A DNA stretch of 64,000 nt from Escherichia phage vB_EcoM_E9.1: sequence record PP886230; one strand, written 5' to 3'. The notes beneath the pieces are model-generated. The model searched no databases and had not been told where the DNA came from. It saw nothing but the letters and a program-made list of their open reading frames with translations. The first letter of the stretch is position 1. Each line of letters begins with the position of its first letter. Positions 5,820-21,695 of the stretch are shown here, piece after piece. A program made the translations under genes and the position numbers.

Positions 5820-5825
5820 GTACAT

Positions 5826-6554: not shown

Positions 6555-6582
6555 AGCCCACTGTATAAGTGGGCTTTTTTGT
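6555..6582 (+). terminator. rho-independent terminator
   Basis: Hairpin agcccactgtataagtgggct then TTTTTT. Confidence 0.7.
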
Positions 6583-6817: not shown

Positions 6818-7045
6818 ATGGCTATTATCATTACTCGCGTATCTGGTACTACTGGCAACGAACAAGTAGTTGCAGTCATTACGAACAAGGCAGGTGCGGA
6901 ATTGCAAAATGCAATGAATACCTGGGCCGTTAATGAGTTCGGTCAGTGGGCAAGTGTAGCATACATTGAAACCTATCAAGTGCCGTCGATTAGTTTAACT
7001 GATTTGGGCGTTGAGCGTATCCTTTGCCTTGATGAATTAAATTAA
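6818..7045 (+). CDS. hypothetical early protein
   Basis: ATG after promoter and hairpin; the track ORF from 6761 starts in the promoter. Confidence 0.65.
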   Translation: MAIIITRVSGTTGNEQVVAVITNKAGAELQNAMNTWAVNEFGQWASVAYIETYQVPSISLTDLGVERILCLDELN

Positions 7046-7130
7046 AAAAGTACTTGCAAAGTAAATCGAATAAAGTATAATACATTACATCAAGGGGAGA
7101 AATGGTTCTCCCCACTACAAGGAAACTAAA

Positions 7131-7343
7131 ATGGCTATCATTACTAAAATCAAAGTTAGTAAATCACTGGTTAAACTTGAAGAAGTGAAAGAAGGTTATA
7201 AAGTATCTTGGTGCGGTATGTATCGGACGTTCGCAGATATAGATGATGCGATCAATTATTACACTGACACGGTTAAAAACTTTGTTCGTGCTGATGTGGT
7301 TATGGCAGTGGCAACATATAAAGCATCAAAAGAAAGTAAGTAA
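7131..7343 (+). CDS. hypothetical early protein, paralogue of 10287-10466
   Basis: N-terminus MAIITKIKV resembles MAIIAKTEI. Confidence 0.65.
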   Translation: MAIITKIKVSKSLVKLEEVKEGYKVSWCGMYRTFADIDDAINYYTDTVKNFVRADVVMAVATYKASKESK

Positions 7344-7424
7344 AAATATTATCACAGTACTATTGACATAGTTTGATAGTACTGGCATAATAACTTTTAT
7401 CAAGACAACTAAGAGGAAATTAAA

Positions 7425-7769
7425 ATGGCTAACATCAATACTATAGCAGCACAAAATATCAACCTGTCTTCTGTTGAAGTTGTACATATTGCCGCTCGGC
7501 GTTGGTTCCAGGCTTCATATGGTAACACTTATTTCTCTTTAAGTGTAGACGTAGAAATTGATGGTAATTTTATTGAAGTAGTAAACGTGCCGTTCCAATA
7601 TGGATACGGGGATCATTTTGACACTGTAGCAATGGAAGAATTTAGCAAGGTTATTAATATGGAAGGTAAAGAGTTTTTACGCGGTTCTTATCTTTCCCGT
7701 TTTTGCCGTGATAATAATATCACTGTTTATAGTTCTGTTAGTGATGTTAAACGCAAAAAAGATCTTTAA
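7425..7769 (+). CDS. hypothetical early protein, paralogue of 14309-14632
   Basis: Shared GNTY, YGYG and C-terminal DVKRKKD. Confidence 0.7.
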   Translation: MANINTIAAQNINLSSVEVVHIAARRWFQASYGNTYFSLSVDVEIDGNFIEVVNVPFQYGYGDHFDTVAMEEFSKVINMEGKEFLRGSYLSRFCRDNNITVYSSVSDVKRKKDL

Positions 7770-7849
7770 TTAGCTTTACTTTATGCAGATACTTTGATAT
7801 AGTGTCTGCATAGGGGAAAGAAATTAAATTAACTTAAGAGGATAGTATA

Positions 7850-8119
7850 ATGAAAAATATCAGTACTTTAATCGATGCAGGTACTCATGTTCGTCGGTCT
7901 ATGGTTGCAACCAGTACTACAAAACAAGTAGCGAGCGGTTATCTTGTATTTGTGCACGATGGTAAACTCCTGGAACGTTCAATCAATTTTGATGTTAAAA
8001 ACAATTGCCGTTTTATTATCTTTAAGCGTGAGCAATATAAAATTGATTTACCAGCAAAGCCCATTAGTGGGGCGTACAACGTGCAATCATTGTTTGAACG
8101 TCAACCATACACCTATTAA
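7850..8119 (+). CDS. hypothetical protein
   Basis: ORF 89 aa, SD aagagga. Confidence 0.6.
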   Translation: MKNISTLIDAGTHVRRSMVATSTTKQVASGYLVFVHDGKLLERSINFDVKNNCRFIIFKREQYKIDLPAKPISGAYNVQSLFERQPYTY

Positions 8120-8170
8120 TCAAAACATCGTTAGCGGTCGATTCAGGCCGCTTATATTGGGGATTATACC

Positions 8171-8443
8171 ATGAACGTTAATCAAGTACTGAATGAGATC
8201 GAAAGCATCATTAAACCGATGAAGCGTACTGATGCTATGTTAACACCGGAAGAATGCCGCCTTTATGAGCGTTACAGCGTCGAACAAGTCCAGGCAATGG
8301 CTATGGCTACCCCAGCCGTTAAACCGCCTGAGAATGCGTTACAGGACGTTACAGGGGATTATATCATCAATCCAGTACTAGGGAAGATGGCTGCAATCAC
8401 CGAAGATCAACAAGACTACTTAAGCCAGTACTTAAAAGGTTAA
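8171..8443 (+). CDS. hypothetical protein
   Basis: ORF 90 aa. Confidence 0.6.
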   Translation: MNVNQVLNEIESIIKPMKRTDAMLTPEECRLYERYSVEQVQAMAMATPAVKPPENALQDVTGDYIINPVLGKMAAITEDQQDYLSQYLKG

Positions 8444-8448
8444 TTAAT

Positions 8449-8658
8449 ATGCTTACTGTACAGGATAAGATCGACATCTTAAAGGTTAATATGTATGTGA
8501 TTGATGCAGAACCTGGTAAAGTATTTGCATACGATGATAGTACTGTAAGCGATTTCTACTATAGCCAGGCCGTGGGGGATCTTTCTGTACAGTCGGTTAT
8601 TGAAAACGTAGTTAATGCAGCGTATGAGCATTTACTTTCAAATAGTACTTGCAATTAG
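8449..8658 (+). CDS. hypothetical protein
   Basis: ORF 69 aa, closely follows previous gene. Confidence 0.55.
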   Translation: MLTVQDKIDILKVNMYVIDAEPGKVFAYDDSTVSDFYYSQAVGDLSVQSVIENVVNAAYEHLLSNSTCN

Positions 8659-8728
8659 TTTTTAAACGCGTATAATGTTTTACATCGAGAGCGGGAATAG
8701 TTCCCGCCTCACTTTTAAGGAATATGAA

Positions 8729-8875
8729 ATGAAAGCATCAAAAAAGAGTACTAACAAGAAAGCACGTTCAACCTTAGATGGGGTATTCCCTTTACGTTTC
8801 GTTGATGAAGTGGTTTCCTACCCGCCTGGCCTTACTCCTGAGATGGTAGAAAGTTTGCGTAAATCTAAAAAATAG
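8729..8875 (+). CDS. hypothetical small basic protein (48 aa)
   Basis: In-frame ATG with SD taagga 8 nt upstream; the track ORF from 8675 begins in the promoter. Confidence 0.55.
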   Translation: MKASKKSTNKKARSTLDGVFPLRFVDEVVSYPPGLTPEMVESLRKSKK

Positions 8876-8956
8876 TACTTGCAATTAGTTTTTAGTACTG
8901 TATAATGTTTTACATGAAGGGGAGAAATGATTCTCCCCAATAACAGGAGAAACAAA

Positions 8957-9109
8957 ATGAAACAATACAACGCTCGGTTTGATGTTACTATCGGTAACGG
9001 CAAAGGTCAATTCTCTTTCAGTACTCGCCGCAGTTATACAGAAAACTTCCTGCGTAATTGTGCATTGACCGCCGCTCAAATTAAACATTATTTTCAGGCT
9101 AAAAAATGA
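8957..9109 (+). CDS. hypothetical small protein (50 aa)
   Basis: ATG after SD aggaga; promoter and hairpin upstream. Confidence 0.55.
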   Translation: MKQYNARFDVTIGNGKGQFSFSTRRSYTENFLRNCALTAAQIKHYFQAKK

Positions 9110-9195
9110 GATCATTAGCTTATTACAGTTCGGCCCTGGTCGGTGCATTGATCGCGGCGTTGTTAGTAACCTATCTATTCTTTATGGTGATTTAA
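9106..9195 (+). CDS. putative single-pass membrane peptide (29 aa)
   Basis: ATGA overlap with upstream stop; hydrophobic sequence. Confidence 0.35.
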   Translation: MRSLAYYSSALVGALIAALLVTYLFFMVI

Positions 9196-9333
9196 ATGAA
9201 TCCTAACGGTATAATTTACAGTACTCCTAAAACGAAAGCAGACAAGGTAAACGCTAAAAAAGCGAAAGTAAAGGAGTACATCAAACAAGGAATGACACGA
9301 AAGGCGGCGATTCTAAAAGCTAAAAATAAATGA
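9196..9333 (+). CDS. hypothetical small Lys-rich protein (45 aa)
   Basis: ATG directly after previous stop (TAAATG). Confidence 0.35.
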   Translation: MNPNGIIYSTPKTKADKVNAKKAKVKEYIKQGMTRKAAILKAKNK

Positions 9334-9336
9334 AAA

Positions 9337-9432
9337 AGTGGTTGACTTCGGTCAGCCATTTTGCTATTATATATTCATTGAGAGATAGCTCACTAGCCCA
9401 CAGGGTGCAGGAGTGTATCTATTGTATAATGT
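9337..9432 (+). repeat. promoter-containing repeat element (REP copy)
   Basis: ttgacttcggtcag..ctattatat then ..ctagcccacagggtgcaggagtgtatc. Confidence 0.6.
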
Positions 9433-9553
9433 TTGAGTACTGAAAACTATTTTAAAGTATTTGATAAAAAGTACTTGCAAACTATCTCAATAAGCGTATA
9501 ATGTTTTACATCGCAAGGGGAAACGGTTTCCCCTAGTAATAAGGAAACGAATC

Positions 9554-9895
9554 ATGACTATCTCAATTGCTCAATCTAACTTTGAAAATGAAATCATCGC
9601 CCAGGCACTGCGTTTAAATGATGGTCGGGCCGAAATCAATTACGGTTTCAATTCAGGCGGTTGTGAAAAATATCAGTACTTTGTAACGGCTGATGGCGGT
9701 GTACTGGGCATCAATACAGTTATTGTAAACATACAGAAAATTAATTTCAATGATCCAGACGATAGCCAGTTTTACATCACTGGCGTAGACGTGAACTATG
9801 AGGATGACTCACTAACTGATGACCACACTGGCGAGAAGTTAGAAAGTGCATACGGTGAAGATGATTATCAGTCCGGTCCAGAAGATTTCGAATAA
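9554..9895 (+). CDS. hypothetical acidic protein
   Basis: ORF 113 aa with promoter, hairpin and SD. Confidence 0.7.
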   Translation: MTISIAQSNFENEIIAQALRLNDGRAEINYGFNSGGCEKYQYFVTADGGVLGINTVIVNIQKINFNDPDDSQFYITGVDVNYEDDSLTDDHTGEKLESAYGEDDYQSGPEDFE

Positions 9896-9991
9896 TATTA
9901 AAAAATAGTTTGACAATAGATTATAGTACTGTATAATAGTTTACATCAAGGGGAGAAAAACTTCTCCCCACTAACAGAGAGAGAAAACAAA

Positions 9992-10204
9992 ATGGCTAAT
10001 ATCCGGTCGAAATTAAAAAATGCAAAACAAGTTTTATTTTCAGATCATGAATACTTTAATAAAGATATTACAGGAGTTACAAGTATCAAGGAAGTAAAAG
10101 AAAAAACCGGCGTTTTGTGTGATGTGCGATTAGTTGGGACATTTGGGAATAACGTGCTATATCGCTGTGGTGATTACAATTTTACACTGACTATCATTAA
10201 CTAA
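9992..10204 (+). CDS. hypothetical protein
   Basis: ORF 70 aa with promoter and hairpin. Confidence 0.65.
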   Translation: MANIRSKLKNAKQVLFSDHEYFNKDITGVTSIKEVKEKTGVLCDVRLVGTFGNNVLYRCGDYNFTLTIIN

Positions 10205-10286
10205 AAATATTATCACAGTACTATTGACATAGTTTGATAGTACTGACATAATAACTTTTATCAACTACACTACTAAGGAATTAAAA

Positions 10287-10466
10287 ATGGCTATCATCGC
10301 AAAAACTGAAATCATCGGCCTGGATTCTATCATCATGACGTTTGAAGATCAAAAAGGTATGTATGTGGTTTCCTATGGTGATTATGTTCGGGAGTATGAA
10401 ACGGTAGACGAAGCCTTTGAAAGTTACATTCGCCAGGTGAATAAAGCATACGACGACTACCGCTAA
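10287..10466 (+). CDS. hypothetical small protein (59 aa), paralogue of 7131-7343
   Basis: ORF below track cutoff; SD aagga; promoter 10215-10250. Confidence 0.55.
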   Translation: MAIIAKTEIIGLDSIIMTFEDQKGMYVVSYGDYVREYETVDEAFESYIRQVNKAYDDYR

Positions 10467-10565
10467 AATATATTACCAGTACTATTAAAGATATTGACAA
10501 CGTTTGATAGTACTGTATAATAAGTTTTATAAACAGTAGTTAACTTAACCTAAGAGAGAAATAAA

Positions 10566-10709
10566 ATGATCGCACTGGATTCATTCATCGACGCAGTACT
10601 GGCAAAAACTGGCGAGGATCTGACCGCAGAACAATACGCGATGATCGAACAATGTCAACAGGACGGTAAATCGGTGAAAGATACTGTTAAGATTATCCGC
10701 AAGATGTAA
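10566..10709 (+). CDS. hypothetical small protein (47 aa)
   Basis: ORF with SD agagaga and promoter upstream. Confidence 0.45.
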   Translation: MIALDSFIDAVLAKTGEDLTAEQYAMIEQCQQDGKSVKDTVKIIRKM

Positions 10710-10714
10710 GATTA

Positions 10715-10745
10715 TAGCCCACTGGTTAACGCTGGTGGGCTTTAA
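10715..10745 (+). terminator. terminator-like hairpin containing a Chi octamer
   Basis: agcccac..gtgggct stem; GCTGGTGG at 10732-10739; weak T-run. Confidence 0.45.
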
Positions 10746-10814
10746 TTCATTACCCTATACAATGCCAGTACTAAACCGTTTATCTCGTTAGAATGCGTTA
10801 CAGGACGTTTACCA

Positions 10815-11012
10815 ATGATTAGCATGAAATCAGTACAAAAACAAATAGAAACATTATCAAAAATTAAACGTAAACAGTACTCCTTAGAATATACAATCAA
10901 TGGTAACTATCATCTAATGAAAGAAAATAATTTTATAGTCATTGATGAATCATTGCAAATCATTAGTATAGTACTGAAAGCATTAATCAATGACAGAAAA
11001 AAATTAAAATAA
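10815..11012 (+). CDS. hypothetical protein
   Basis: ORF 65 aa. Confidence 0.5.
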   Translation: MISMKSVQKQIETLSKIKRKQYSLEYTINGNYHLMKENNFIVIDESLQIISIVLKALINDRKKLK

Positions 11013-11024
11013 ACTATTGACAAT

Positions 11025-11112
11025 ATCATCCAGCACTGGCATAATACTTACACCAAGACGAGAACGTCACTAACCCATAGGGTGCACAAATGTAACTGTA
11101 TAATATTGATCA
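11025..11112 (+). repeat. promoter-containing repeat element (REP copy, variant)
   Basis: TTGACA..cataat promoter then ..ctaacccatagggtgcacaaatgtaac. Confidence 0.5.
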
Positions 11113-11343
11113 AAAAATGATCTGATCAATACTTGATCAATTTGCGTAAAGTAGTATAATTCTATGCAGTTGGTTAGACGAAAGGTTATGATTAGTAGTG
11201 CAAGTGTATAAAAATTTTCATGGTGTATCGTTCCGCACATATGGGGATGAATATGTGGTATCATGTGGATTGGAAAAAGTAAGAACAAGTAATATTATTG
11301 TCGCATTACAGTACTATAGTATTTTTATAATGAGGTTAAAATA

Positions 11344-11601
11344 ATGGCTGTAGGATTCGCGAAAGATGGGGCCGAGCAAGACGAGATTAACGCAGTGATT
11401 CAGGCCGCCGTTAACCACGCTAGAAAGCAAATTAACGCACAAATAGAATCACTGATACATTGCCTCGACTGCGGCGATATAATCCCTGAGAAACGACGCC
11501 AGGCCGTTAAGGGATGTAAGTACTGCATAACTTGCCAGGAGGATCATGATAGTACTTTTAAACGTCCCCCGCGTAATTGTTGGCATAGATCTATGAGATA
11601 A
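11344..11601 (+). CDS. TraR/DksA-family C4 zinc-finger protein
   Basis: CLDCGDIIPEKRRQA..CKYCITC matches the zf-DksA/TraR pattern. Confidence 0.75.
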   Translation: MAVGFAKDGAEQDEINAVIQAAVNHARKQINAQIESLIHCLDCGDIIPEKRRQAVKGCKYCITCQEDHDSTFKRPPRNCWHRSMR

Positions 11602-11664
11602 AAAGTATTGACAGTACTGAAAGATAGTGTATAATGTTTTATATCTTAACTGAGGATAGTAATC

Positions 11665-12021
11665 ATGGGAATACAACATATCACGCGTACTACTGACAAT
11701 GGCGAGATCACTGGCTATCAAGTACAGGGCAAAGTAGCACAATTGCAGTACTGGTTTGTGAAACGTGGAATCATTGCACCGGATCTTGATTATGACCGTG
11801 TAGCGTTTATTGATTCTCTTTATGTTGATCCTGATAGTCGGGGCAATGGTGAAGGTAACGAATTAATGAATGCCTTTATTGATGCCGCCGATGATTCAGA
11901 TTGTATCATTTTAGAATGCGATACGGGAGAAGATAACGCCTTTAATCTTAAAGAATGGTACGAAGGTTTCGGATTCGAGGTACTGATCGATAGTGAATAT
12001 CCTATCATGATTTTATCATAG
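11665..12021 (+). CDS. putative GNAT-like acetyltransferase (small)
   Basis: VDPDSRGNGEGNELM resembles GNAT motif A and EWYEGFGFEV motif B; assignment tentative. Confidence 0.5.
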   Translation: MGIQHITRTTDNGEITGYQVQGKVAQLQYWFVKRGIIAPDLDYDRVAFIDSLYVDPDSRGNGEGNELMNAFIDAADDSDCIILECDTGEDNAFNLKEWYEGFGFEVLIDSEYPIMILS

Positions 12022-12099
12022 TACTTGCATTTAGTTTTCAGTACTGTTATAGTACTTGCATCAAGGGGAAACATCTTCCCCTACTAAGAGGAAATAAAA

Positions 12100-12288
12100 A
12101 TGGAAAACTTATCAAGTATTTTAGTACAAGATGATTTCGGTAATCCTGGAAGTGCTATCATTGTTCGGGGTAATAAAGCAACGTTTGTTATTGCTGGTGG
12201 ACCAGTACAGCGTAGCATTAAAAATAATGCTGTTACCATTAATAATGTACGCTATCGCTTAGATAAAGAATTGATTCATAAACTGTAA
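12100..12288 (+). CDS. hypothetical protein
   Basis: ORF 62 aa with promoter and hairpin. Confidence 0.6.
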   Translation: MENLSSILVQDDFGNPGSAIIVRGNKATFVIAGGPVQRSIKNNAVTINNVRYRLDKELIHKL

Positions 12289-12315
12289 TATTAATTTAAT
12301 AGAGGATAACAATAA

Positions 12316-12639
12316 ATGTACATTCATACTACTATCACAAAGGAAGTCCGTTGCCAGTTCGAAAGTATTCCGGGCGTATGTTTCATCACTGGTACGTTTT
12401 CCCCTGGTGATCGTGATAATCCAGTACTGTTACAATTACGCCATCCATCATGGGATAAAGCATTTGATCTACCGTTGAATGAATTCGCAACTACTGCTGA
12501 AAAGTACATTAAAAATATTCGCGAGAATGATCGACTATTCATTAATGCTTTTAGTGATTCCGCGTTAAGCGAGATCCACGGCGTATTGGTTGCAATCATG
12601 GAATCAATGCAGAAAACTAAATTCAAACAAGGTGAATAA
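12316..12639 (+). CDS. hypothetical protein
   Basis: ORF 107 aa; SD gagga. Confidence 0.65.
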   Translation: MYIHTTITKEVRCQFESIPGVCFITGTFSPGDRDNPVLLQLRHPSWDKAFDLPLNEFATTAEKYIKNIRENDRLFINAFSDSALSEIHGVLVAIMESMQKTKFKQGE

Positions 12640-12722
12640 AAACTATTGACAATGCAACCCAGTACTGTATAATAGTTTACATGAAGGGGAGAAATGATTC
12701 TCCCCACTGAGAGGAAAGAAAA

Positions 12723-12935
12723 ATGCAAGGTCAACTAATCGTTCGTAAATGGTCTGATACTAACGAAAAACCGTGGGATGTACAATACATCGGACCGGAT
12801 GGGGTATCACGTTATCAGCCTGGCGTAACGCATAGTACTGAGCAATATGCCGCCGCTCACCGCGAACGCCTGTTAGAATCCATGAAACAGGGATTCTGTG
12901 AAAAATTCATTCAAGATCATTGGCTGAAAGATTAA
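12723..12935 (+). CDS. hypothetical protein
   Basis: ORF 70 aa with promoter and hairpin. Confidence 0.65.
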   Translation: MQGQLIVRKWSDTNEKPWDVQYIGPDGVSRYQPGVTHSTEQYAAAHRERLLESMKQGFCEKFIQDHWLKD

Positions 12936-12952
12936 TAGAAGGAGTACAGCTT

Positions 12953-13045
12953 ATGCAAATGAATCCGATGATTATTGTTTTAGCTGTACTTATGATCATT
13001 CATGCAATTGTAGAAGTATTAACGCAATCAGGAGTAATAAAATGA
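12953..13045 (+). CDS. putative small membrane peptide (30 aa)
   Basis: SD aaggagt; hydrophobic; first of three overlapping micro-ORFs. Confidence 0.4.
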   Translation: MQMNPMIIVLAVLMIIHAIVEVLTQSGVIK

Positions 13046-13215
13046 TTCAAGTAGAATTATCAGTACTGAAAGATCTGTTTTATCGGTTAGGTACTACTGG
13101 AGAGTATCCTAAAAGTGATACCGCAAAACTTTTTGTATCACTCGACTTATGGCAACGCGAACAATTAGTAATGTCCTGGCGTAAAGGTAAAGCAGATCGC
13201 GAGGTGAAAGCATGA
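13042..13215 (+). CDS. hypothetical small protein (57 aa)
   Basis: ATGA overlap with upstream stop. Confidence 0.4.
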   Translation: MIQVELSVLKDLFYRLGTTGEYPKSDTAKLFVSLDLWQREQLVMSWRKGKADREVKA

Positions 13216-13361
13216 AAGAATTCTTATTCGAAGTAGTGTTTCAAGGTGTCGGTAGTAACCAACTGATTCGCTCAAGTGGTTACAATGTTAACCAGGCATG
13301 GAATAACATTAAACAAATGTACCCGAACGCTATCACCTATCGCAACCCGAAAGAAGTTTAA
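13212..13361 (+). CDS. hypothetical small protein (49 aa)
   Basis: ATGA overlap with upstream stop. Confidence 0.4.
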   Translation: MKEFLFEVVFQGVGSNQLIRSSGYNVNQAWNNIKQMYPNAITYRNPKEV

Positions 13362-13371
13362 AAATATTTGA

Positions 13372-13452
13372 AAAAGGGATTGACTCCGGTCAGTCCCTTT
13401 GCTATTATATACGCATAGAAACAATTCAGCCCACCGGGTGCATAAATGTATC
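13372..13452 (+). repeat. promoter-containing repeat element (REP copy)
   Basis: gggattgactccggtcagtccc..ctattatat then ..cagcccaccgggtgcataaatgtatc; Chi GCTGGTGG at 13451-13458. Confidence 0.6.
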
Positions 13453-13531
13453 TATTATATGCTGGTGGCTAGTACTGAAAACTATTTTTAAAAAGTACTT
13501 GCATTGTATTTAGAATCAAGTATAATGTTTT

Positions 13532-13612
13532 ACATCAGGACGGGGAACGAAACAAGTAACCCCGTTAAGTAGTCCAGGAGTAAGACATACGAAAACCTCC
13601 CCTGATAAAATA
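13532..13612 (+). ncRNA. candidate small RNA (copy 2)
   Basis: Near-identical to 3378-3460; substitutions look compatible with the proposed stems; sits between two promoters. Confidence 0.35.
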
Positions 13613-13674
13613 GTTTGACAATAGAAATTAAACGAGTATAATACTTACATCAACCACTGATAAGGAAACATAAA

Positions 13675-13950
13675 ATGCGGATTCTACTGACAGCTAACGA
13701 AATCGAACAAGTACTGACTACTAACCTGGAAGACTGGAAACGTGAAGCAGATATCCAGGCGGTTCAATGGTTAAATGATAAGTTAACGCCGGATGACTTA
13801 AGCAAGATTGTAGATCCTCAATTCTACGAAGATATCCACGACACCGCGTTAAGCGTCGAGGATGTACTAGATAAGCACTTTATTGATACTGATTTGCAGG
13901 TTTACGGTCGTAAAAACTTTATCACTATTCACGACATTTACAATAATTAA
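13675..13950 (+). CDS. hypothetical protein
   Basis: ORF 91 aa. Confidence 0.65.
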   Translation: MRILLTANEIEQVLTTNLEDWKREADIQAVQWLNDKLTPDDLSKIVDPQFYEDIHDTALSVEDVLDKHFIDTDLQVYGRKNFITIHDIYNN

Positions 13951-14037
13951 GTATTGACAAAGTATCTTAGTACTGTATAATAGTTTACATCAAGCGAGGG
14001 GAATGGTTCCCCTCCTAACTAAAAGAGAGAAATAAAA

Positions 14038-14220
14038 ATGGCTAAGTGCACTATCTGCAAGAAAGAAATAGTATTAGTTCCAAGTGCCCGTGAACGTGCC
14101 GCTCGGTTCGGTGGCAAAGCGTCAGACTATACAAAAATGTTTACTACCCATACAGCTTGCCAGGTAGCAAAACGTTCACAAGAAAGCGTAGAATTAATGC
14201 GTAAACTTTCCAAAAAATAA
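14038..14220 (+). CDS. hypothetical basic protein
   Basis: ORF 60 aa with promoter and hairpin. Confidence 0.6.
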   Translation: MAKCTICKKEIVLVPSARERAARFGGKASDYTKMFTTHTACQVAKRSQESVELMRKLSKK

Positions 14221-14308
14221 GTATTGACAAAGTATCTTAGTACTGTATAATAGTTTACATCAAGTGAGGGGAAACGGTTCCCCTCCTAACAAAGAGAGAG
14301 AAATAAAA

Positions 14309-14632
14309 ATGGCTATGATCCTTGCCCAGAAAGTAGAATTGAAAATTGTAACCTCCTTTGACATTAACGTTAATCGGTGGACTGATTCACACGGCAATAC
14401 TTACCACTCTTGCTACGTGTCTGCGTTAATTGGCGACCGCTGGGAAGACCTGGGACACGAAACCTTTACATACGGTTACGGTACACAAGGCGAATACACG
14501 GGCTTGGAGATCATTAAAGAAACCGTTATAGGTTTCAACCCGAAAGAAAAAGTTATTCACCGCATCGAGGAAGAGATCAACAAAGAAATAACAGTTCGCT
14601 ACCACGATGTAAAACGTAAGAAAGACATGTAA
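14309..14632 (+). CDS. hypothetical protein, paralogue of 7425-7769
   Basis: ATG after leader hairpin; shared DVKRKKD C-terminus. Confidence 0.7.
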   Translation: MAMILAQKVELKIVTSFDINVNRWTDSHGNTYHSCYVSALIGDRWEDLGHETFTYGYGTQGEYTGLEIIKETVIGFNPKEKVIHRIEEEINKEITVRYHDVKRKKDM

Positions 14633-14727
14633 TAGAATCCATTTAAAGTACTATTTGACATTGCCCAGATAGTACTTTATAATAGACTCTAACTTGTAGT
14701 ACTAACTTAACTAATAGGATGTATACC

Positions 14728-15123
14728 ATGATTACTAAATTCTACGCTACCCGTGAAGCTGCCCGTATTGTTGCACGCGAGGAAGGCGAAACATTTAAAG
14801 ACATGGGCAAAGATGCACCGAAAGGTCAACGCTGGGCCGTACAGTTCAAAGAGATCTCTGATATTGTGAATTCACCGGAGCCAGTACTAACAGCAGCAGA
14901 ACTAAAACGAGCGGATTTACTGGCGTCAATACTTGATGCACAAGATGAGTTTATCGCTGATTCTGATATCAAAGTACAGACAAACCACACCGCTTGGACT
15001 CACGCGGATCACCTGGCAAACCTTAAGCGTCCAAGTGAACTGATTCGCAACCAGAAAGAGATCCGACACGACCGTAAGGGTAATCGTGTAACAGTATACA
15101 GTAAACGCCGCCAGGTTATCTAA
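14728..15123 (+). CDS. hypothetical protein, paralogue of 2511-2777
   Basis: SD agga 8 nt upstream of ATG 14728; shared FKDMG and DRKGNRVTVY. Confidence 0.7.
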   Translation: MITKFYATREAARIVAREEGETFKDMGKDAPKGQRWAVQFKEISDIVNSPEPVLTAAELKRADLLASILDAQDEFIADSDIKVQTNHTAWTHADHLANLKRPSELIRNQKEIRHDRKGNRVTVYSKRRQVI

Positions 15124-15145
15124 TAACTTGCAGTACTAACAACAC

Positions 15146-15171
15146 GGCGGGATCAGTTCCCGCCTTTTTTA
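15146..15171 (+). terminator. rho-independent terminator
   Basis: Hairpin ggcgggatcagttcccgcc then TTTTTT. Confidence 0.7.
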
Positions 15172-15184
15172 TAGGACAAACAAA

Positions 15185-15439
15185 ATGATTAAGGTTCAAC
15201 TATATAAAGATAACATCTTACGGGTACACTATAAAGCACCTCAGAGAATCATCACAAAGGCCGTACAGCTTGCTAATGAGTTTATTAATGGTAACCTATT
15301 ACCAAGGAAGTTAAGCAACGGGAAACTGCGTGTAATCGATGTGGACACTAACAACAGAATAGTAATAGAGAACACAGGAAAAATAAACCTATATGAACAC
15401 CAACAATATAATAAGAAAATAAAACTAATATCACGTTGA
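15185..15439 (+). CDS. hypothetical protein
   Basis: ORF 84 aa. Confidence 0.55.
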   Translation: MIKVQLYKDNILRVHYKAPQRIITKAVQLANEFINGNLLPRKLSNGKLRVIDVDTNNRIVIENTGKINLYEHQQYNKKIKLISR

Positions 15440-15492
15440 CAGTACTCAAATGTTTTAGTACTATATGTACATACCAACACGGGGGAAACAAA

Positions 15493-15735
15493 ATGATTAC
15501 TTTAGAAAAACGTATCAAAGAAACTACATCGCTGGTGGAACTGTTAACAGTACTCAAATGTAAAACAACACCATTCAGCACGCCGGACTTTATTAATATG
15601 GTTGATGTTAATGGTCGCTATCGTATCACGGTCGAACAAGGAGCGGCGAAAGTATTCAGTACTAAAAACACGAAGGAAGTGATCCACGCCGTTAATGTTA
15701 AAAAAGTAGTTGCCATTGATAGTAAAGTACTGTAA
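15493..15735 (+). CDS. hypothetical protein
   Basis: ATG after gggggaaacaaa; the track ORF starts upstream at 15436. Confidence 0.55.
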   Translation: MITLEKRIKETTSLVELLTVLKCKTTPFSTPDFINMVDVNGRYRITVEQGAAKVFSTKNTKEVIHAVNVKKVVAIDSKVL

Positions 15736-15766
15736 GATAGTTACATTAACTCAAGGAGAACATGCA

Positions 15767-16351
15767 ATGCGTAATTATACTAAATTCATCCGTACACTGT
15801 CAGAAATGGAAACCAACAAAGAGATCCTTTCAGCTTGTCGGTTAGCTGGCCTGGAGATCATCGGTGCTGGTTCTTCCCGTATAGTATTCGCTTTAAATGA
15901 TCGGTTAGTGATTAAGGTCGCGAATTGTGATGCGGGTGTAGAACAAAATGAAACTGAATGTAAGGTATGGAATTTTTTAGACTATGACCGCCCTCAGTTG
16001 AAACAGTACTTTGCAAAGGTGCATATGCATTTATGCGATCCTGATAATATGTTTATCGTTATGGATCGGTTGAGTACTGCAAGCAAAGGCAGCGTAAAGC
16101 ACGTTAACGCGTGCAACGAATTAAAGTATAATATTAAACGTAATGCCATTGAACGCCAGCACCGCTTTGCTGATGCACTACAACACGTTGATGATACATT
16201 ATCAACACTAACGATAAGAGATATCAGAAAACAGAATATCGGCCAGGATCGTAATGGACTTATTAAAGTACTTGATTACGGTTTAACCCGCAATATCTGG
16301 AATCAGTACTATAAAAAGCGTGATGTAGAAGCAAGTAAGGTAACACGATAA
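15767..16351 (+). CDS. minimal protein-kinase-like protein (putative Ser/Thr kinase)
   Basis: Gly-rich loop IGAGSSRIVF, VIKV lysine, IRDIRKQNIG resembling HRDLKPENI, and DYG in place of DFG; SD aaggaga 6 nt upstream. Confidence 0.55.
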   Translation: MRNYTKFIRTLSEMETNKEILSACRLAGLEIIGAGSSRIVFALNDRLVIKVANCDAGVEQNETECKVWNFLDYDRPQLKQYFAKVHMHLCDPDNMFIVMDRLSTASKGSVKHVNACNELKYNIKRNAIERQHRFADALQHVDDTLSTLTIRDIRKQNIGQDRNGLIKVLDYGLTRNIWNQYYKKRDVEASKVTR

Positions 16352-16360
16352 AAAAAGATT

Positions 16361-16465
16361 AAAAAAGGGATTGACTCCGGTCAGTCCCTTTGCTATTATA
16401 TATTCATTGAGAGATAACTCACTGACCCATAGGGTGCGGAAGTGTATCTATTATATAAGTATTCA
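16361..16465 (+). repeat. promoter-containing repeat element (REP copy)
   Basis: gggattgactccggtcagtccc..ctattatat then ..cactgacccatagggtgcggaagtgtatc. Confidence 0.6.
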
Positions 16466-16573
16466 GTACTGAAAACTATTTTTAAAAAGTACTTGCATTG
16501 TACTTAGAATCAAGTATAATGTTTTATATCGAGAGGGGAAATGGTTCTCCCTCAAAGAACAAGGAATAAAATC

Positions 16574-16795
16574 ATGACTACAATGACTTGCATTCACGCT
16601 TCAAACCTGCTTAATGATGCGGCCTTTAATGTTGAAACAGAATATCAATGTTATCGGGATGAAAATAAAAAAGTTTTTGTAGTTGATAATAATGGTTTCC
16701 ATATTGAATTGCAATCCGGCTTCACTGGCGTTGATGGTAAATCAGTATGGGGCGTACAGGATGATAAAGGCACATATCATTTTAAACGTAATTAA
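16574..16795 (+). CDS. hypothetical protein
   Basis: ATG after SD aaggaat; the track ORF from 16541 starts in the leader hairpin. Confidence 0.65.
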   Translation: MTTMTCIHASNLLNDAAFNVETEYQCYRDENKKVFVVDNNGFHIELQSGFTGVDGKSVWGVQDDKGTYHFKRN

Positions 16796-16881
16796 GTATT
16801 GACAAAGTATATCAGTACTGTATAATAGTTTACATCAAGGGGAGAATAGTTCTCCCCACACCAATAAAAGGAAACATAATT

Positions 16882-17154
16882 ATGTCTAGCTACTCCGCTA
16901 CTATGATCATTAAAGATATGAACGGTAATCCTACTTCTGCTGGTGGATCATTTGGAAACATTAATTTAGATGGTCGGTTATCCATGCAATCAGCAATCGA
17001 TGCAGCGAAAGAAGTTTTTAAGAATGAATGTACTGTTAGTAAGCTGGATTATATGGGATTTGCTATCGAAAAAACTAATCGTTTTGTGGACTACAAAAAA
17101 CCACTGATGATTGATACTAACCTGAAAGCAAACGAAGTGGAGTACTTATTATGA
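16882..17154 (+). CDS. hypothetical protein
   Basis: ORF 90 aa with promoter and hairpin. Confidence 0.65.
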   Translation: MSSYSATMIIKDMNGNPTSAGGSFGNINLDGRLSMQSAIDAAKEVFKNECTVSKLDYMGFAIEKTNRFVDYKKPLMIDTNLKANEVEYLL

Positions 17155-17342
17155 CAGTTGAAGAAGTAAAAAAAGTACTGGCAGTACTACGCTATCATAA
17201 TCATTGTAAGGTGAAGAATGATCCTGATTATCTTGATTCATCCCTGGAAGAGGATACACTACAAGCAATAAGCCATATGCAAAAAATGCTTAAGCGTATG
17301 ACCGAAAAGAACAGGCCAGACTATATCGGAAATAAAATTTAA
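17151..17342 (+). CDS. hypothetical protein
   Basis: ORF 63 aa, ATGA overlap. Confidence 0.55.
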   Translation: MTVEEVKKVLAVLRYHNHCKVKNDPDYLDSSLEEDTLQAISHMQKMLKRMTEKNRPDYIGNKI

Positions 17343-17428
17343 AAAGTACTTGCATTGTAGTTAGATTAACGTATAATGTTTTACATAGAGCGGGGGAATA
17401 GTTCTCCCGCCAGTCCAGGAGATACACC

Positions 17429-17692
17429 ATGAACACTATCGAAATCACTATCAATGCACACGTATACGACAACGTAGTACTGCAAACTACTATGACCGCT
17501 AATGATACCAGTACTTTGCGGAATACTGTTATTAGTGCCGTATGTGCCGCTATCGGTGATGTCGCCCTGGAAAATGCAAAACACGTAAACGATGGTTTCA
17601 CTATGTGCAAACGTGATAACGCAAAACATATCATCGTGGAAGGTTACGGCGGTGTAGAATTTAATGTTTATATGAAAAAAGTACTTGCATAA
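17429..17692 (+). CDS. hypothetical protein
   Basis: ORF 87 aa with promoter, hairpin and SD. Confidence 0.65.
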   Translation: MNTIEITINAHVYDNVVLQTTMTANDTSTLRNTVISAVCAAIGDVALENAKHVNDGFTMCKRDNAKHIIVEGYGGVEFNVYMKKVLA

Positions 17693-17759
17693 TAACTAAA
17701 ACAAAGTATAATGTTTTGCATAGGGGGAGATATCCTCCCCCACTAAAAGGAGTACTAAA

Positions 17760-17984
17760 ATGGCTAACTTTGATGAACTGATGCGGGAAGTAGCTAACCT
17801 GGCAGAAGAGAAGAAATCATTCGATTCTATCTATAACACCGCTCATCGTGATTCAGTACTGGCATGTAACCAGGATCAAAAAGATGAACTAATCGCCACC
17901 TATCATGAAGCATGGAAGTACTACCGACAATGGGAGAAAGAAGAAAGCGAGTCTACCATCAACGGCATCAATAATCTAATCTAA
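17760..17984 (+). CDS. hypothetical protein
   Basis: ORF 74 aa with promoter and hairpin. Confidence 0.65.
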   Translation: MANFDELMREVANLAEEKKSFDSIYNTAHRDSVLACNQDQKDELIATYHEAWKYYRQWEKEESESTINGINNLI

Positions 17985-18060
17985 AAGTTTTATTTCAGTA
18001 CTATTGACATAGCTTGATAGTACTGATGTAATAACTTTACTAACTACAAGGGGAAACATA

Positions 18061-18318
18061 ATGGAACAGTTCACACAATATCGGGTAAATCCTCAAGCTA
18101 TGGCCTACGTAGAAGACCATAAAACGTTACCAGTACTGCAACCAGTTAAAGGCCATATCTATCGTGCAATGTCGTGGTGTGCGGCCCAGGATGGCTATAA
18201 AACCGTAGCCGTGGGTATGTACTGCGGTAATGGTGAATGGTTTGATCCAAATAATCCGGTAGCCATTGACAGTACTGAAAAAATGAAATGGGCCGACTAC
18301 ATCGAAGATATTTCATAA
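18061..18318 (+). CDS. hypothetical protein
   Basis: ORF 85 aa. Confidence 0.65.
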   Translation: MEQFTQYRVNPQAMAYVEDHKTLPVLQPVKGHIYRAMSWCAAQDGYKTVAVGMYCGNGEWFDPNNPVAIDSTEKMKWADYIEDIS

Positions 18319-18408
18319 AAACTATTTGACAGTACTAACCAGTAATGTATAATGTTTTACATAGAGCGGGGGAATAGTTCTCCCGCCAATAGTTTGGAGT
18401 TAAACATT

Positions 18409-18609
18409 ATGTCTATCGCTATCTCCCTGGTTGAAGTACTGAAAGAAGCTAAAGCCAACCAGATCGACGTAAAGATCCAGGAACTACAAAACGGCTTAAT
18501 CGGCTGTACTTGTACCGCTGGTGGAGCGGCAGACTATCGAGAACACGAATCACTCGAATCACTGGTTCGGTATCTTTCCATGATCGTTGATGATTGGAGA
18601 ATCATCTAA
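18409..18609 (+). CDS. hypothetical protein
   Basis: ATG after the hairpin; the track ORF from 18352 starts in the promoter. Confidence 0.6.
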   Translation: MSIAISLVEVLKEAKANQIDVKIQELQNGLIGCTCTAGGAADYREHESLESLVRYLSMIVDDWRII

Positions 18610-18621
18610 CAAAAAAGAATA

Positions 18622-18705
18622 AAAAAGGGATTGACTCCGGTCAGTCCCTTTGCTATTATATACGCATAGACAAAAACTAGCCCACAGGGTGCATAGGTGT
18701 ATCCA
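18622..18705 (+). repeat. promoter-containing repeat element (REP copy)
   Basis: gggattgactccggtcagtccc..ctattatat then ..ctagcccacagggtgcataggtgtatc; Chi at 18739-18746 just downstream. Confidence 0.6.
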
Positions 18706-18853
18706 AAATATATAGTTAATAACGGTGAGTAACTATCTGCTGGTGGAACTAAAACTATTAATAAAAAAGTATTGACAAAGTATATCAGTACTGCGATAAT
18801 GTATCTCGTAGGGCGGCAATGGTGCGACGGCCCACAAAGTTAGGAGATTCAAA

Positions 18854-19186
18854 ATGACTACTTCAATCGCTATCGTTAAAGCTTTCATCCGTACTAATGT
18901 TTCCTCTGTATTCATCGACGGCCTCGACCGTAACGTAGAATACTCAATCATTATCGCACAAACGGCAAACGGTTCTCGGTACATCCTGAATGATAGTGAA
19001 GCAAATCACTACTACTTCACTAAAGCCACTGGCTTTAAACGCATCGATGCTGATGTAGTATACGCTAAGATGAATAAGCTGGTAGATAAGATTAACGCTA
19101 AAGGTACTATAGATTTACAGTACTGGACCGAAACCGATCCAGAGTATGGATCTCACCGCTACCTGAATCCAGGTATCAAAATGTAA
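18854..19186 (+). CDS. hypothetical protein
   Basis: ORF 110 aa; TTGACA promoter near 18772 with a long structured leader. Confidence 0.7.
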   Translation: MTTSIAIVKAFIRTNVSSVFIDGLDRNVEYSIIIAQTANGSRYILNDSEANHYYFTKATGFKRIDADVVYAKMNKLVDKINAKGTIDLQYWTETDPEYGSHRYLNPGIKM

Positions 19187-19275
19187 AAAGTACTTGCATA
19201 GTACTTAGATTCATGTATAATGTTTTACATAGAGAGGGGGAAATGGTTCTCCCTCCTAAATTAAGGAGTTTTATC

Positions 19276-19677
19276 ATGACCTTCTCAATCAATTCCTTCG
19301 CTGACGTTTTAGTACTGGCCCGGACTTTTGGTAAAGATGCACTGGAGTACGCTGTAAGTAATGGCACTATCCAACCGGAACAGTGCCGCATCATTGGAAA
19401 CTGCAAACGTTGGGCGGTATCCAATACTATTGCACTGGAAAACTTCCACGATGGCAACAATGAATATTCTGTTGATGTAGTATTCGAAGCCGTTGATCTC
19501 GGCGGTATCTATAATACTAACCTGAATGATGTGCGTATCGTTCGCACGGGGTTCGGTGCTTATGATGTATCTATCCGTGAAGCTATGAACACCGGATACA
19601 TTAGCAAGGACTTACTTGCTCACATCATGCAGCTGTGTACGGAACGTAACGAAGCACGTACTATCTTAGGGCTGTAA
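19276..19677 (+). CDS. hypothetical protein
   Basis: ATG after SD taaggagt; the track ORF from 19213 starts in the promoter. Confidence 0.7.
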   Translation: MTFSINSFADVLVLARTFGKDALEYAVSNGTIQPEQCRIIGNCKRWAVSNTIALENFHDGNNEYSVDVVFEAVDLGGIYNTNLNDVRIVRTGFGAYDVSIREAMNTGYISKDLLAHIMQLCTERNEARTILGL

Positions 19678-19745
19678 GCAATACACATCACCAAACATCA
19701 TAGGCCGCTCTCTAGCGGCCTTAACTATATCAGGAGTACATACAT

Positions 19746-19955
19746 ATGTTCTATACAGTATACAGCGTTCTAGGCACTATTGCAGGCGTACATGATAACG
19801 TCAATGATGCTATGCGTACAGTACTGCAACAGGTTCCACTAAAGCCTAAGACCATTAAGCAGATGACAGCACGACTAACCAGGGCGACGGCTGGCGTGGA
19901 AGTATGGCAGGACTATGGGGATACACAGATAATCGTAAGCGTAACGAAGGATTAA
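19746..19955 (+). CDS. hypothetical protein
   Basis: ORF 69 aa, SD caggagt. Confidence 0.6.
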   Translation: MFYTVYSVLGTIAGVHDNVNDAMRTVLQQVPLKPKTIKQMTARLTRATAGVEVWQDYGDTQIIVSVTKD

Positions 19956-19959
19956 TGCG

Positions 19960-20200
19960 TAAAGGGATTTAGTACTGATTCAGAAAAAAGTCAAGGCGTT
20001 TTTAAAATTATGCGTTAAAAAAATGCATAGGTAATCCCTTGACTTTTTTGAAATAAAAGGGATTGGACTATGGCAAAATGCGTAGGGGGCTAAAGGGCGG
20101 GTAACCTTAGCGACTTCGATAAAGGGGTATTACGAATAAAATGTTATTGATTTTTTATACGAATCGTATATTATAGGATTGATATTATTTTTAATGGAGT
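19960..20200. promoter_or_regulatory. non-coding junction with inverted repeats (aaaaagtcaagg / ccttgactttttt; aaagggatt x3) at the transition to AT-rich DNA
   Basis: Inverted repeats read directly; base composition changes here. Confidence 0.45.
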
Positions 20201-20204
20201 CCCT

Positions 20205-20402
20205 ATGCGTATTTTAACTAAAGAACAGCACCACGAAAGACTTATCAATAACATGGCTATGATAATGTATAAGTCCCATGACCATGGTATTGCCTATAAG
20301 CGTGAATTAATTATGGCACTATTCATTGGAACTAACTTTCAGGAAAGGTATGTCAACGATTGGATTTGGTATTTAATTGAAGATATAACGAGTAAACTAT
20401 GA
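20205..20402 (+). CDS. family A paralogue (about 70 aa, LGTNYQE-type motif)
   Basis: Motif FIGTNFQERYV. Confidence 0.65.
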   Translation: MRILTKEQHHERLINNMAMIMYKSHDHGIAYKRELIMALFIGTNFQERYVNDWIWYLIEDITSKL

Positions 20403-20599
20403 AAATGCGTATTTTAAATAAAGAAGAATATCAATCACTGTTACGTAAAAACTTCACAAAGATTTATAATACAGACACACACGTAGAACGAATGGAGTTA
20501 TACCTTTTGATTACTTTGGGAACTAACTATCAGGAAAGATGGGTGATTCAATATATGGATACATTGAAAAATAAAATATTGTCCACGAGGAAACAATGA
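20399..20599 (+). CDS. family A paralogue
   Basis: ATGA overlap; motif TLGTNYQERWV. Confidence 0.65.
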   Translation: MKMRILNKEEYQSLLRKNFTKIYNTDTHVERMELYLLITLGTNYQERWVIQYMDTLKNKILSTRKQ

Positions 20600-20805
20600 A
20601 AACTATAACACGAACCCAATCATACGGTCTTATCTTGAAATACATGGACTTAATGGTGGATATCAGCAAAGACCTTCCTAAAACTGAAATTGAAGTTGCA
20701 AGAGCAGAGATCCGCATGTTGGCTGTACTGAACACAAACCATCAGGAAGAGTATGTTGACGATTGGATTCGATTTTTAATAGAAGATATTAAGAGTAAAC
20801 TATGA
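20596..20805 (+). CDS. family A paralogue
   Basis: ATGA overlap; motif VLNTNHQEEYV. Confidence 0.65.
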   Translation: MKTITRTQSYGLILKYMDLMVDISKDLPKTEIEVARAEIRMLAVLNTNHQEEYVDDWIRFLIEDIKSKL

Positions 20806-21017
20806 TTATTATAGAAAACTCATATCAATATACTGAACGCATCGCTGCCAGACAACTTGAAATCCTCATAATATACGAAGAGACTTCTGATTTAAACTTA
20901 GCCGAGGTATTGGAAAATGATATACTATTGGGTGCATTCTTAGGAACAGACTATCAGAAGTATTATGAGGAAAAGTATTTGTCATCTCTTGAGAAATATA
21001 TCAGGAGCAAATTATGA
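20802..21017 (+). CDS. family A paralogue
   Basis: ATGA overlap; motif FLGTDYQKYYE. Confidence 0.65.
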   Translation: MIIIENSYQYTERIAARQLEILIIYEETSDLNLAEVLENDILLGAFLGTDYQKYYEEKYLSSLEKYIRSKL

Positions 21018-21226
21018 TTTTTTTAACACCAGAAGAATATAAGAAACGTTTCAATTCCGCACAGGGTGAAATCTTACTTATATACCTTTCAAATGCAGAC
21101 CTTAACTTATCAAGGGTATTAGAAAAAGATTTACTTATGGGTGCATTCCTTGATACAGACTTTCAGGTGTATTATGTAGGGGAATACTTAATTGCACTTC
21201 AGAATTATATCAGGAGTAAACTATGA
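21014..21226 (+). CDS. family A paralogue
   Basis: ATGA overlap; motif FLDTDFQVYYV. Confidence 0.65.
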   Translation: MIFLTPEEYKKRFNSAQGEILLIYLSNADLNLSRVLEKDLLMGAFLDTDFQVYYVGEYLIALQNYIRSKL

Positions 21227-21441
21227 AACATTTAAGTAATTACGAGAAGAATAAAATTATCGTTGCTGCAATAAACAAATATTTTACACTTCCTCACACA
21301 GAAGGTTTATGTGTAAGGGAACACAGGATAAACACCACCGATATACGCATGATGGCTGTACTGGGGACGAACTTTCAGGAAGAGTATGTTGTTGCACACA
21401 TAGTTGCCCTCACTGATCTAATAAGGGACAAATGTAAATGA
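21223..21441 (+). CDS. family A paralogue
   Basis: ATGA overlap; motif VLGTNFQEEYV. Confidence 0.65.
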   Translation: MKHLSNYEKNKIIVAAINKYFTLPHTEGLCVREHRINTTDIRMMAVLGTNFQEEYVVAHIVALTDLIRDKCK

Positions 21442-21695
21442 AACACTTAACTGATGATGAATTTGAAACTATAATTCGTAAACTAACCCCCATCACAAGG
21501 ATAGTCTACGGTGACCCCAGCCTTACATGGAACCAAATGCGAGCTAAAGTTAATGAGCTATGGTTGCTGTACTTTATGGGGACTCAATATCAAGATAAGT
21601 TTTGCACAGAATATATCGAACAATTAACGAATGTTATACAGGATAAACTAGATGATTATTTGCTCACAAAACATGAAGACTTTATCAGGAGTTGA
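21438..21695 (+). CDS. family A paralogue with C-terminal read-through
   Basis: Motif FMGTQYQDKF; the usual KL-stop/ATGA junction is disrupted near 21645. Confidence 0.6.
   Translation: MKHLTDDEFETIIRKLTPITRIVYGDPSLTWNQMRAKVNELWLLYFMGTQYQDKFCTEYIEQLTNVIQDKLDDYLLTKHEDFIRS

Follow-up and report, generated by a model that had tools for sequence, protein, structure and literature searches.

Long direct terminal repeats (DTRs) have already been described for close relatives of this phage among the Asteriusvirus jumbo coliphages. The DTR of fEgEco12 was sized at 20,993 bp by PhageTerm and confirmed with ten restriction enzymes (PMC13070987), that of Sharanji was sized at 20,668 bp by PhageTerm (PMC11895373), and read coverage indicated a terminal repeat of about 20 kb in G17 (PMC6563267). 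Further away, most of the 13,185-bp terminal redundancy of Bacillus phage SPO1 is taken up by a cluster of small genes, the majority of them orphans, which forms a host-takeover module (PMC10531801). A term search of the articles PMC13070987, PMC11895373, PMC6563267 and PMC11465974 found no mention of a contrast in composition, codon usage or promoters at the end of the repeat, nor of a cut motif.

The DNA considered here is a stretch of 64,000 nt from Escherichia phage vB_EcoM_E9.1, referred to below as the window. An earlier note on this DNA had pointed to a sharp junction near 20.1 kb and had proposed that it is either a mosaic boundary or a regulatory switch between expression classes. This reading is partly right, and it misses the terminal repeat as the cause of the break. 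Taking the inner boundary of a DTR, an early module and the junction elements together gives the best explanation of the whole, to which we assign a probability of roughly 90%. What is new is modest: a composition break at the end of the repeat, a conserved cut motif, and host-like codon usage.

A Break in Composition and Gene Layout

The GC content is 0.387 for positions 1-20107 and 0.322 for positions 20108-64000, in agreement with the moderately GC genes on the left and AT-rich genes on the right of the earlier note. In a maximum-likelihood scan of the 64-kb window, the best single change point in GC falls at 20127 (support interval 19918-20169), with a log-likelihood gain of 126.7. The composition junction is real, since the largest gain in 200 permutations of 100-nt blocks is only 13.0. 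Further change points within either half yield gains of just 5.9 and 3.8, none worth naming. The proposed check on GC and codon usage was run, and both shift at the junction: GC at third codon positions (GC3) is 0.376 on the left and 0.301 on the right.

The layout of the genes changes at the same place. Approximate + strand gene calls, on which all of these spacing and coding figures rest, give a median intergenic distance of 82.5 nt to the left of the break and of -4 nt to its right (Mann-Whitney P = 4e-13). Overlaps affect 11% of the gene junctions on the left as against 63% on the right, and the coding fraction is 0.70 and 0.93, respectively. The mostly ATGA-coupled arrangement announced for the right side is confirmed. 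The break at 20.1 kb is the dominant compositional and organisational boundary of the window.

The Boundary Lies at the Inner End of the Terminal Repeat

A 6-kb query taken around the junction matches 67 phage records, the best of them being Asteriusvirus jumbo coliphages with 92-98% identity, including UB, ELP-22, phAPEC6, PBECO4, G17 and fEgEco12. Among phage records, the best local match to the window reaches 99.3% identity. Positions 1-1500 align from base 1 of CRJP21, BF17, ELP-22, fEgEco12 and vB_Ec-M-J, whose ends were resolved in the deposit. Because its base 1 coincides with base 1 of these five end-resolved records, the start of the window is taken as a left physical terminus. Alignment thus identifies the window as the first 64 kb of an Asteriusvirus (PBECO4/121Q/G17-like) jumbo-phage genome, counted from its left physical end.

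Eight records contain two copies of the region, and their far ends were compared. In seven of them (fEgEco12, G17, vB_Ec-M-J, CRJP21, BF17, WPEC3 and WPEC5) the sequence stops at the identical nucleotide, ...GGGTAACCT (also given as ...GGGCGGGTAACCT), which is homologous to window position 20107. Origins are stated for five of the seven: Finland, Germany, Poland and, twice, Thailand. In these seven relatives the common terminus lies 152 nt past the stop codon of the homologue of the gene at 19746-19955. The exception is ELP-22, whose record stops 128 nt earlier, at ...TAGTACTGAT, equivalent to window position 19979. In Turkey5 (3150-3270), about 80 nt of the spacer that follows the gene are duplicated at the place where the ELP-22 record stops.

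The GenBank record of vB_Ec-M-J carries a feature named "Direct Terminal Repeats" at 1..21525, and the end of this feature aligns to window 20106/20107. In alignment coordinates, base 20,993 of fEgEco12 corresponds to window 20106-20107, and the repeat length published for Sharanji agrees with the position in G17 of the copy of window base 1. Because record ends, the vB_Ec-M-J annotation and published lengths all meet at 20107, alignment identifies window 1-20107 as the left DTR, and the junction at 20.1 kb as its inner boundary. By the same comparison, it is at 20107 that the right physical end of the virion DNA is formed, with the cut context GGTAACCT^TAGCG. For this particular genome, the second copy of the repeat and the physical ends are deduced from relatives with 92-99% identity. 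The GC change point of the window falls 20 nt from the end of the DTR; in fEgEco12 it falls at 21013, again offset by 20 nt from the published end at 20993.

A packaging model can be proposed from DTR phages in general. Replication would produce concatemers in which a single copy of the repeat lies between unique regions. The terminase complex would then make cuts at 0|1 and at 20107|20108 of the window, both of them fixed sites, with duplication of the repeat, leaving every virion with a repeat at both ends.

Anatomy of the Junction

The last gene of the DTR and the first gene of the array are separated by 249 nt. The features of this spacer and of its surroundings are as follows.

1-20107, + strand: left DTR, about 55 small spaced genes with many promoters and terminators, GC 0.387 (from the termini of relatives and annotation)
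19746-19955, + strand: final gene of the DTR, encoding 69 aa of unknown function, phrog_17833 (homologues in seven relatives)
19961-19969, + strand: first copy of AAAGGGATT (exact match)
19971-19978, no strand assigned: AGTACTGA, holding the final AGTACT palindrome before a 4.8-kb gap (motif count)
19984-20049, + strand: nested hairpin, candidate terminator, possibly bidirectional (inverted repeat and RNA fold)
20056-20072, + strand: second copy of AAAGGGATT, running into the block GATTGGACTATG (match and alignment)
20100-20118, + strand: right-terminus site GGTAACCT^TAGCGACTTCG, with 20107 as the last base of the DTR and the core CCTTAGC at 20105-20111 (record ends)
20147-20174, + strand: array promoter, sigma-70-like, TTGATT-N16-TATTAT (conserved in relatives)
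20196-20207, + strand: start of the first gene in the array, with its ribosome-binding site GGAG and its ATG (sequence, conserved in relatives)
20205-25725, + strand: 23 phrog_4148 paralogues in tandem, 65-90 aa, mostly ATGA-coupled (gene calls and family match)

The inverted repeats seen earlier in the junction are indeed present. The outer stem of the hairpin is formed by AAAAAAGTCAAGG (19984-19996) pairing with CCTTGACTTTTTT (20037-20049) at 13 of 13 positions, with 40 nt between the arms, and the inner stem by 20008-20016 with 20022-20030. Six T, partly inside the stem, close the 3' arm, and just 4 of the 13 outer pairs are G-C. The RNA fold has a z-score of -2.85 for 19956-20065 and of -4.2 for 19950-20210. 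A 40-nt structured loop on an AT-rich stem is atypical of an intrinsic terminator, and a simple terminator scan did not report the hairpin at 19984-20049. The chances seem about even that this nested hairpin with its T-run would end transcription of the repeat ahead of the DNA end, or boundary.

Three aaagggatt motifs had also been reported here. Two of them are exact + strand copies of AAAGGGATT, at 19961 and 20056, and the third is an inverted form, AATCCCTT (20033-20040), that matches the reverse complement at only 8 of 9 positions. In the whole window this 9-mer occurs 8 times against 0.74 expected. Downstream of the GATTGGACTATG block, a G-rich block runs up to GGTAACCT^TAGCG. The conserved promoter at 20147-20174 would then drive the coupled phrog_4148 array as a single long operon.

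The order of elements in the spacer, first the hairpin and T-run (19984-20049) and then the conserved promoter (20147-20174), is what would be expected if the junction were transcriptional punctuation and nothing else, a terminator and a promoter between two classes of operon with no tie to the genome ends. There is next to no chance that this is the full account, as it leaves unexplained the seven genome ends at 20107 as well as the PhageTerm and restriction evidence. Such punctuation fits as one component of the best explanation, namely the inner boundary of the DTR, and not as an alternative to it.

The only small ORFs in the 249-nt junction encode 22 and 27 aa, and each overlaps a flanking gene. 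An Rfam search of 18500-21500 gave a single sub-threshold match to bglG-cis-reg (26.5 bits for a gathering score of 80, E = 0.068), which was taken as chance, and a tRNA/tmRNA scan of the window returned no genes.

Conservation of the Junction and Cut Site

The heptamer CCTTAGC is invariant in the divergent Asteriusviruses JNE01, Turkey5 and EJP2, although the flanks and most of the spacer have changed. The array promoter is kept in G17, vB_Ec-M-J, JNE01, Turkey5 and EJP2, in relatives in the form TTGACT-N16-TAnAAT, and the ribosome-binding site GGAGTCCC..ATG is kept in JNE01, Turkey5 and EJP2. GGACTATG is present in JNE01 and Turkey5 but not in EJP2, and GATTGGACTATG is found in JNE01, Turkey5 and the Klebsiella phage fENko-Kae01 but not in EJP2.

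The conservation extends to another genus. In fENko-Kae01, the 19,736-bp repeat defined by PhageTerm ends at the homologous ...GCCT|TAGCC, after GATTGGACTATG, and the last gene of this repeat is a homologue of 19746-19955 (38% identity, E = 8e-15). An analogous AAGTCA...TGACTT nested hairpin precedes the end of the repeat in the same phage. EJP2 has a different hairpin and a T-run at the homologous position, and in JNE01 and Turkey5 the alignment reads as an ATGCAT...ATGCAT repeat, then a T-run, in place of the repeat that forms the outer hairpin. Because JNE01 and Turkey5 have this other repeat, and because the informative variation is too small, no claim of covariation is made for the hairpin.

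Since the position of the cut is conserved across genera, CCT^TAGC is marked as a candidate for the cut or recognition sequence of the terminase. A motif common to the left (...CCCACTA|AGTAGGCAG) and right (...GGTAACCT|TAGCG) cut sites was sought, and nothing convincing emerged; aligning the left cut region between genera gave no useful information.

The end of the repeat can be located from sequence alone, by GATTGGACTATG-N32-CCT^TAGC (with the spacing of the window) together with a GC change point that lies within 20 nt of it in two genomes. This would help to mend the numerous collapsed or arbitrarily permuted genomes in the sequence databases. Identifying the boundary also removes a false lead, as the junction at 20.1 kb is no new element.

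The Repeat as a Probable Early Module

The repeat is rich in signals for transcription by host-type machinery, in keeping with the earlier claim of many promoters on the left and few on the right. On the left, 109 sigma-70-like sites are counted, versus 65.9 +/- 8.8 in shuffles, and perfect TTGACA-N16/17-TATAAT promoters occur 12 times in the repeat, all on the + strand. The next 20 kb to the right hold 103 sigma-70-like sites, versus 118.5 +/- 10.9, none of them perfect. Terminator-like sites number 26 versus 12.2 +/- 3.0 on the left and 8 versus 6.2 +/- 2.7 in the right 20 kb. Several recurring units are found almost entirely within 1-20107: 16 of the form AGTACTTG(C/A)A..TATAAT, 17 of the form TTGACA..NATAAT, and 14 copies of GTATAATGTTTTACAT. 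The repeat carries at least 33 stereotyped near-consensus sigma-70 promoters, along with terminator-like hairpins, and most of its genes would have such a promoter to themselves.

Between 1637 and 19230, and in the repeat only, 14-16 stereotyped units AGTACTTG(C/A)A-N16-GTATAATGTTTTACAT share a conserved initial transcribed sequence. Three identical cassettes AAAGGGATTGACTCCGGTCAGTCCCTTTGCTATTATAT, which begin AAAGGGATTGACT, lie at 13373-13410, 16364-16401 and 18624-18661, with a variant at 9335, and each is opened by a copy of AAAGGGATT. The cassette consists of a 12-bp hairpin whose 5' arm holds a -35 box, TTGACT, 17 nt from TATTAT. These cassettes look like compact terminator-promoter units.

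Codon usage also differs across the boundary. The genes of the repeat come nearer to the codon choice of highly expressed E. coli genes: with index values after the Sharp and Li table, the codon adaptation index relative to E. coli falls from 0.32 within the repeat to 0.21 on its right (P = 6e-11). CTG makes up 26% of Leu codons in the repeat versus 7% on the right, AGA 8.5% versus 34% of Arg codons, and ATA 12% versus 28% of Ile codons. Such host-like codons, with few AGA and ATA, would suit an unmodified host machinery in the first minutes of infection. The products of three genes in the repeat are candidates for host-takeover functions: a DksA/TraR-type C4 zinc-finger protein (11344-11601, E = 1.6e-10), a GNAT acetyltransferase (11665-12021, E = 4e-9), and a protein-kinase-like protein (15767-16351), the last a weak, sub-threshold match.

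The repeat is probably an immediate-early, host-takeover module, with its timing read from promoter consensus and codon usage. Its higher GC would then stem from the constraints imposed by promoters, terminators and codons, and not from a foreign origin. A regulatory switch between expression classes at the junction, as the earlier note put forward, is plausible in view of the many promoters of the repeat and the single conserved promoter ahead of the coupled array. Because the array promoter is also sigma-70-like, however, the genes on either side may fall in one and the same temporal class. The literature searched yielded no report on transcription timing in Asteriusvirus or fENko-Kae01, nor on DNA injection in this phage group. 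Given its host-takeover architecture, the repeat is the place to seek early anti-host genes.

The outermost part of the repeat (1-1724) has a different character. No convincing gene was found there, and most relatives annotate nothing. Its DNA is crowded with (T)CAGTACTGA(A) palindromes as well as other direct and inverted repeats, among them two identical units of 40 nt (at 1518 and at 1571) and, at 780-900, repeats of the GGCTAGAC/GGCTAAAC type. This DNA could hold signals for packaging, replication or entry.

The way in which promoters are arranged in the repeat would suit very early expression, and also a T5-like injection stop, in which the repeat would enter first, transfer would pause at the structured boundary, and proteins made from the repeat would admit the rest of the genome. 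The left repeat of T5 is analogous, as it carries pre-early genes and a palindrome-rich stop signal (bioRxiv 10.1101/866236), and the low fold z-score of the junction (-4.2) shows that it too is structured. Such a stop is nevertheless very unlikely because DnaA boxes, by which that model defines the T5 stop region, are not enriched: TTATCCACA with at most one mismatch is found 26 times versus 27.2 expected, and not once in 19900-20300 or 1-1700. Besides, the repeat-rich untranslated DNA is at the outer end (1-1700) and not at the inner boundary, and these phages are myoviruses with a distant kinship to T4 rather than siphoviruses of the T5 type. The inner boundary of a DTR that probably acts early remains the preferred reading.

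Paralogue Arrays to the Right of the Boundary

The paralogue array announced on the right of the junction is real, with 23 consecutive genes of the same family at 20205-25725. The members of this family, phrog_4148, share an LGTNxQExYV motif, and the paralogues have 16-35% identity to the first array member. In a search of 5.8 billion proteins and 50,697 phage records, members turned up in Asteriusvirus phages, in E. coli assemblies that have contigs of roughly 350 kb, and nowhere else, and tblastn did not detect the family in EJP2 or fENko-Kae01. In these two phages the boundary is immediately followed by another family, of about 160 aa. Its matches to window genes, in families further right, are weak (best E = 3e-4) with a shared EExYFQ motif, and a clear homology between these post-boundary arrays and genes of the window was set aside for that reason. 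Between 29252 and 44797 of the window, the EExYFQ motif recurs in at least 13 proteins, about 115-190 aa long, which fall into two or three families of paralogues. A Pfam search of the array proteins and of the last genes of the repeat gave nothing above threshold.

Identity between relatives also falls across the boundary. In JNE01, protein identity drops from 96-98% for the last proteins of the repeat to 35-50% for the first proteins of the array, and the DNA of fEgEco12 is 93-97% identical in the repeat and 72-87% beyond it. The boundary thus also separates a conserved block from fast-evolving arrays, which adds a mosaic component, and to this extent the earlier proposal of a mosaic boundary was partly right. 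Carried to its end, this proposal would make the boundary purely mosaic: the AT-rich arrays would have been acquired or be lineage-specific, and the step in composition would reflect a foreign origin, with no physical landmark involved. Several of the observations above are in its favor, namely the restriction of phrog_4148 to Asteriusvirus-like sequences, the other family of about 160 aa at the same place in EJP2 and fENko-Kae01, and the drops in identity in JNE01 and fEgEco12; in addition, the array is devoid of the AGTACT signal that marks the genome at large.

The composition itself tells otherwise. GC stays at 0.32 over all 44 kb on the right, including the non-array genes, without any second composition boundary, and the array (GC 0.337) is no outlier among its neighbours. 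With so little identity to the first member, the paralogues point to an old expansion. Since low GC runs unchanged for 44 kb and since the paralogues are old, a recent insertion does not account for the GC step, although the distribution of phrog_4148 among relatives is patchy. Moreover, the boundary is the end of the repeat to the base, in seven genomes and in another genus that is without this array. A purely mosaic origin is thus extremely improbable. The GC step is a property of the repeat versus the rest, not of an insertion, as the preferred reading of a DTR boundary has it.

A Separate Pattern of AGTACT Palindromes

The ScaI palindrome AGTACT is by a wide margin the most over-represented hexamer of the window, with 250 copies versus about 21 expected (roughly 12-fold). 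It occurs in all three codon phases as well as in intergenic DNA, and its sites are more conserved than average hexamers. Its density is highest in the terminal repeat, at 6.6 per kb, and its last copy before the first gap lies in the junction, at 19971. It is absent from two arrays, leaving gaps at about 19977-24750 and 27197-34903. In the second gap, the half-palindrome AGTACA is found 41 times, spread over all three phases and falling at protein positions that are not homologous; none of the 71 GTAC there is followed by T, a strong strand asymmetry. The phrog_4148 array has the opposite variant, TGTACT, 9 times.

The AGTACT domains of fEgEco12 are the same as those of the window, and in its structural-gene region the hexamer is counted 104 times versus 17.9 +/- 3.9. 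It is also enriched in the repeat of fENko-Kae01. The restriction digests of fEgEco12 did not include ScaI (PMC13070987), and the literature searched contained nothing relevant on AGTACT/CAGTACTG in these phages.

Candidate roles for AGTACT would be a binding or modification site, or an operator inside early promoters. We consider it rather doubtful that the end of the repeat at the same time delimits a DNA-marking domain, with AGTACT as a selected, frame-independent signal throughout this phage family, systematically exchanged for AGTACA in the second array, and the adjoining arrays deliberately unmarked or hemi-marked. If this were true, the arrays beside the repeat would be handled differently by some phage or host factor. 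The AGTACT/AGTACA domains are the only surprising item in this region, and they are best kept as a separate curiosity.

Comparison with Known Systems

The left terminal repeat of T5 is like that of the window in containing both the genes expressed first, as far as can be inferred here, and structured non-coding DNA. It differs in two respects: DnaA boxes are not enriched here, and the repeat-rich non-coding block of the window is located at the outer end.

SPO1 provides a parallel in organisation, as a cluster of small genes fills most of a long terminal repeat in both cases. The host-takeover genes of SPO1 are expressed early from strong host-type promoters. The repeat of the window has the same type of layout, with its approximately 55 genes, its median spacing of 82.5 nt, and its enrichment in promoters and terminators. 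SPO1 differs in host, in DNA chemistry (hmU) and in phage family, and for the window early expression is a prediction.

Repeats of about 20 kb with about 50 small genes are also present in Rak2-like fENko-Kae01 (19,736 bp) and in Pectobacterium phage CBB (22,456 bp). As in the window, a tightly packed array follows the CCT|TAGC end of the repeat in fENko-Kae01. Both phages belong to other genera, and the family found after the boundary is the one of about 160 aa, not phrog_4148. The RpoD-like promoters in or next to the 22.5-kb repeat of CBB have likewise been read as early (PMC5259590).

The nearest systems are the DTRs of the Asteriusvirus phages fEgEco12, vB_Ec-M-J, Sharanji and G17, which are like the window in start base, end base and gene order, and whose sequence is 92-99% identical to the repeat of the window. 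Their lengths are 20,993 bp, 21,525 bp, 20,668 bp and about 20 kb, respectively, versus 20,107 bp in the window, and this difference is due to internal insertions and deletions.
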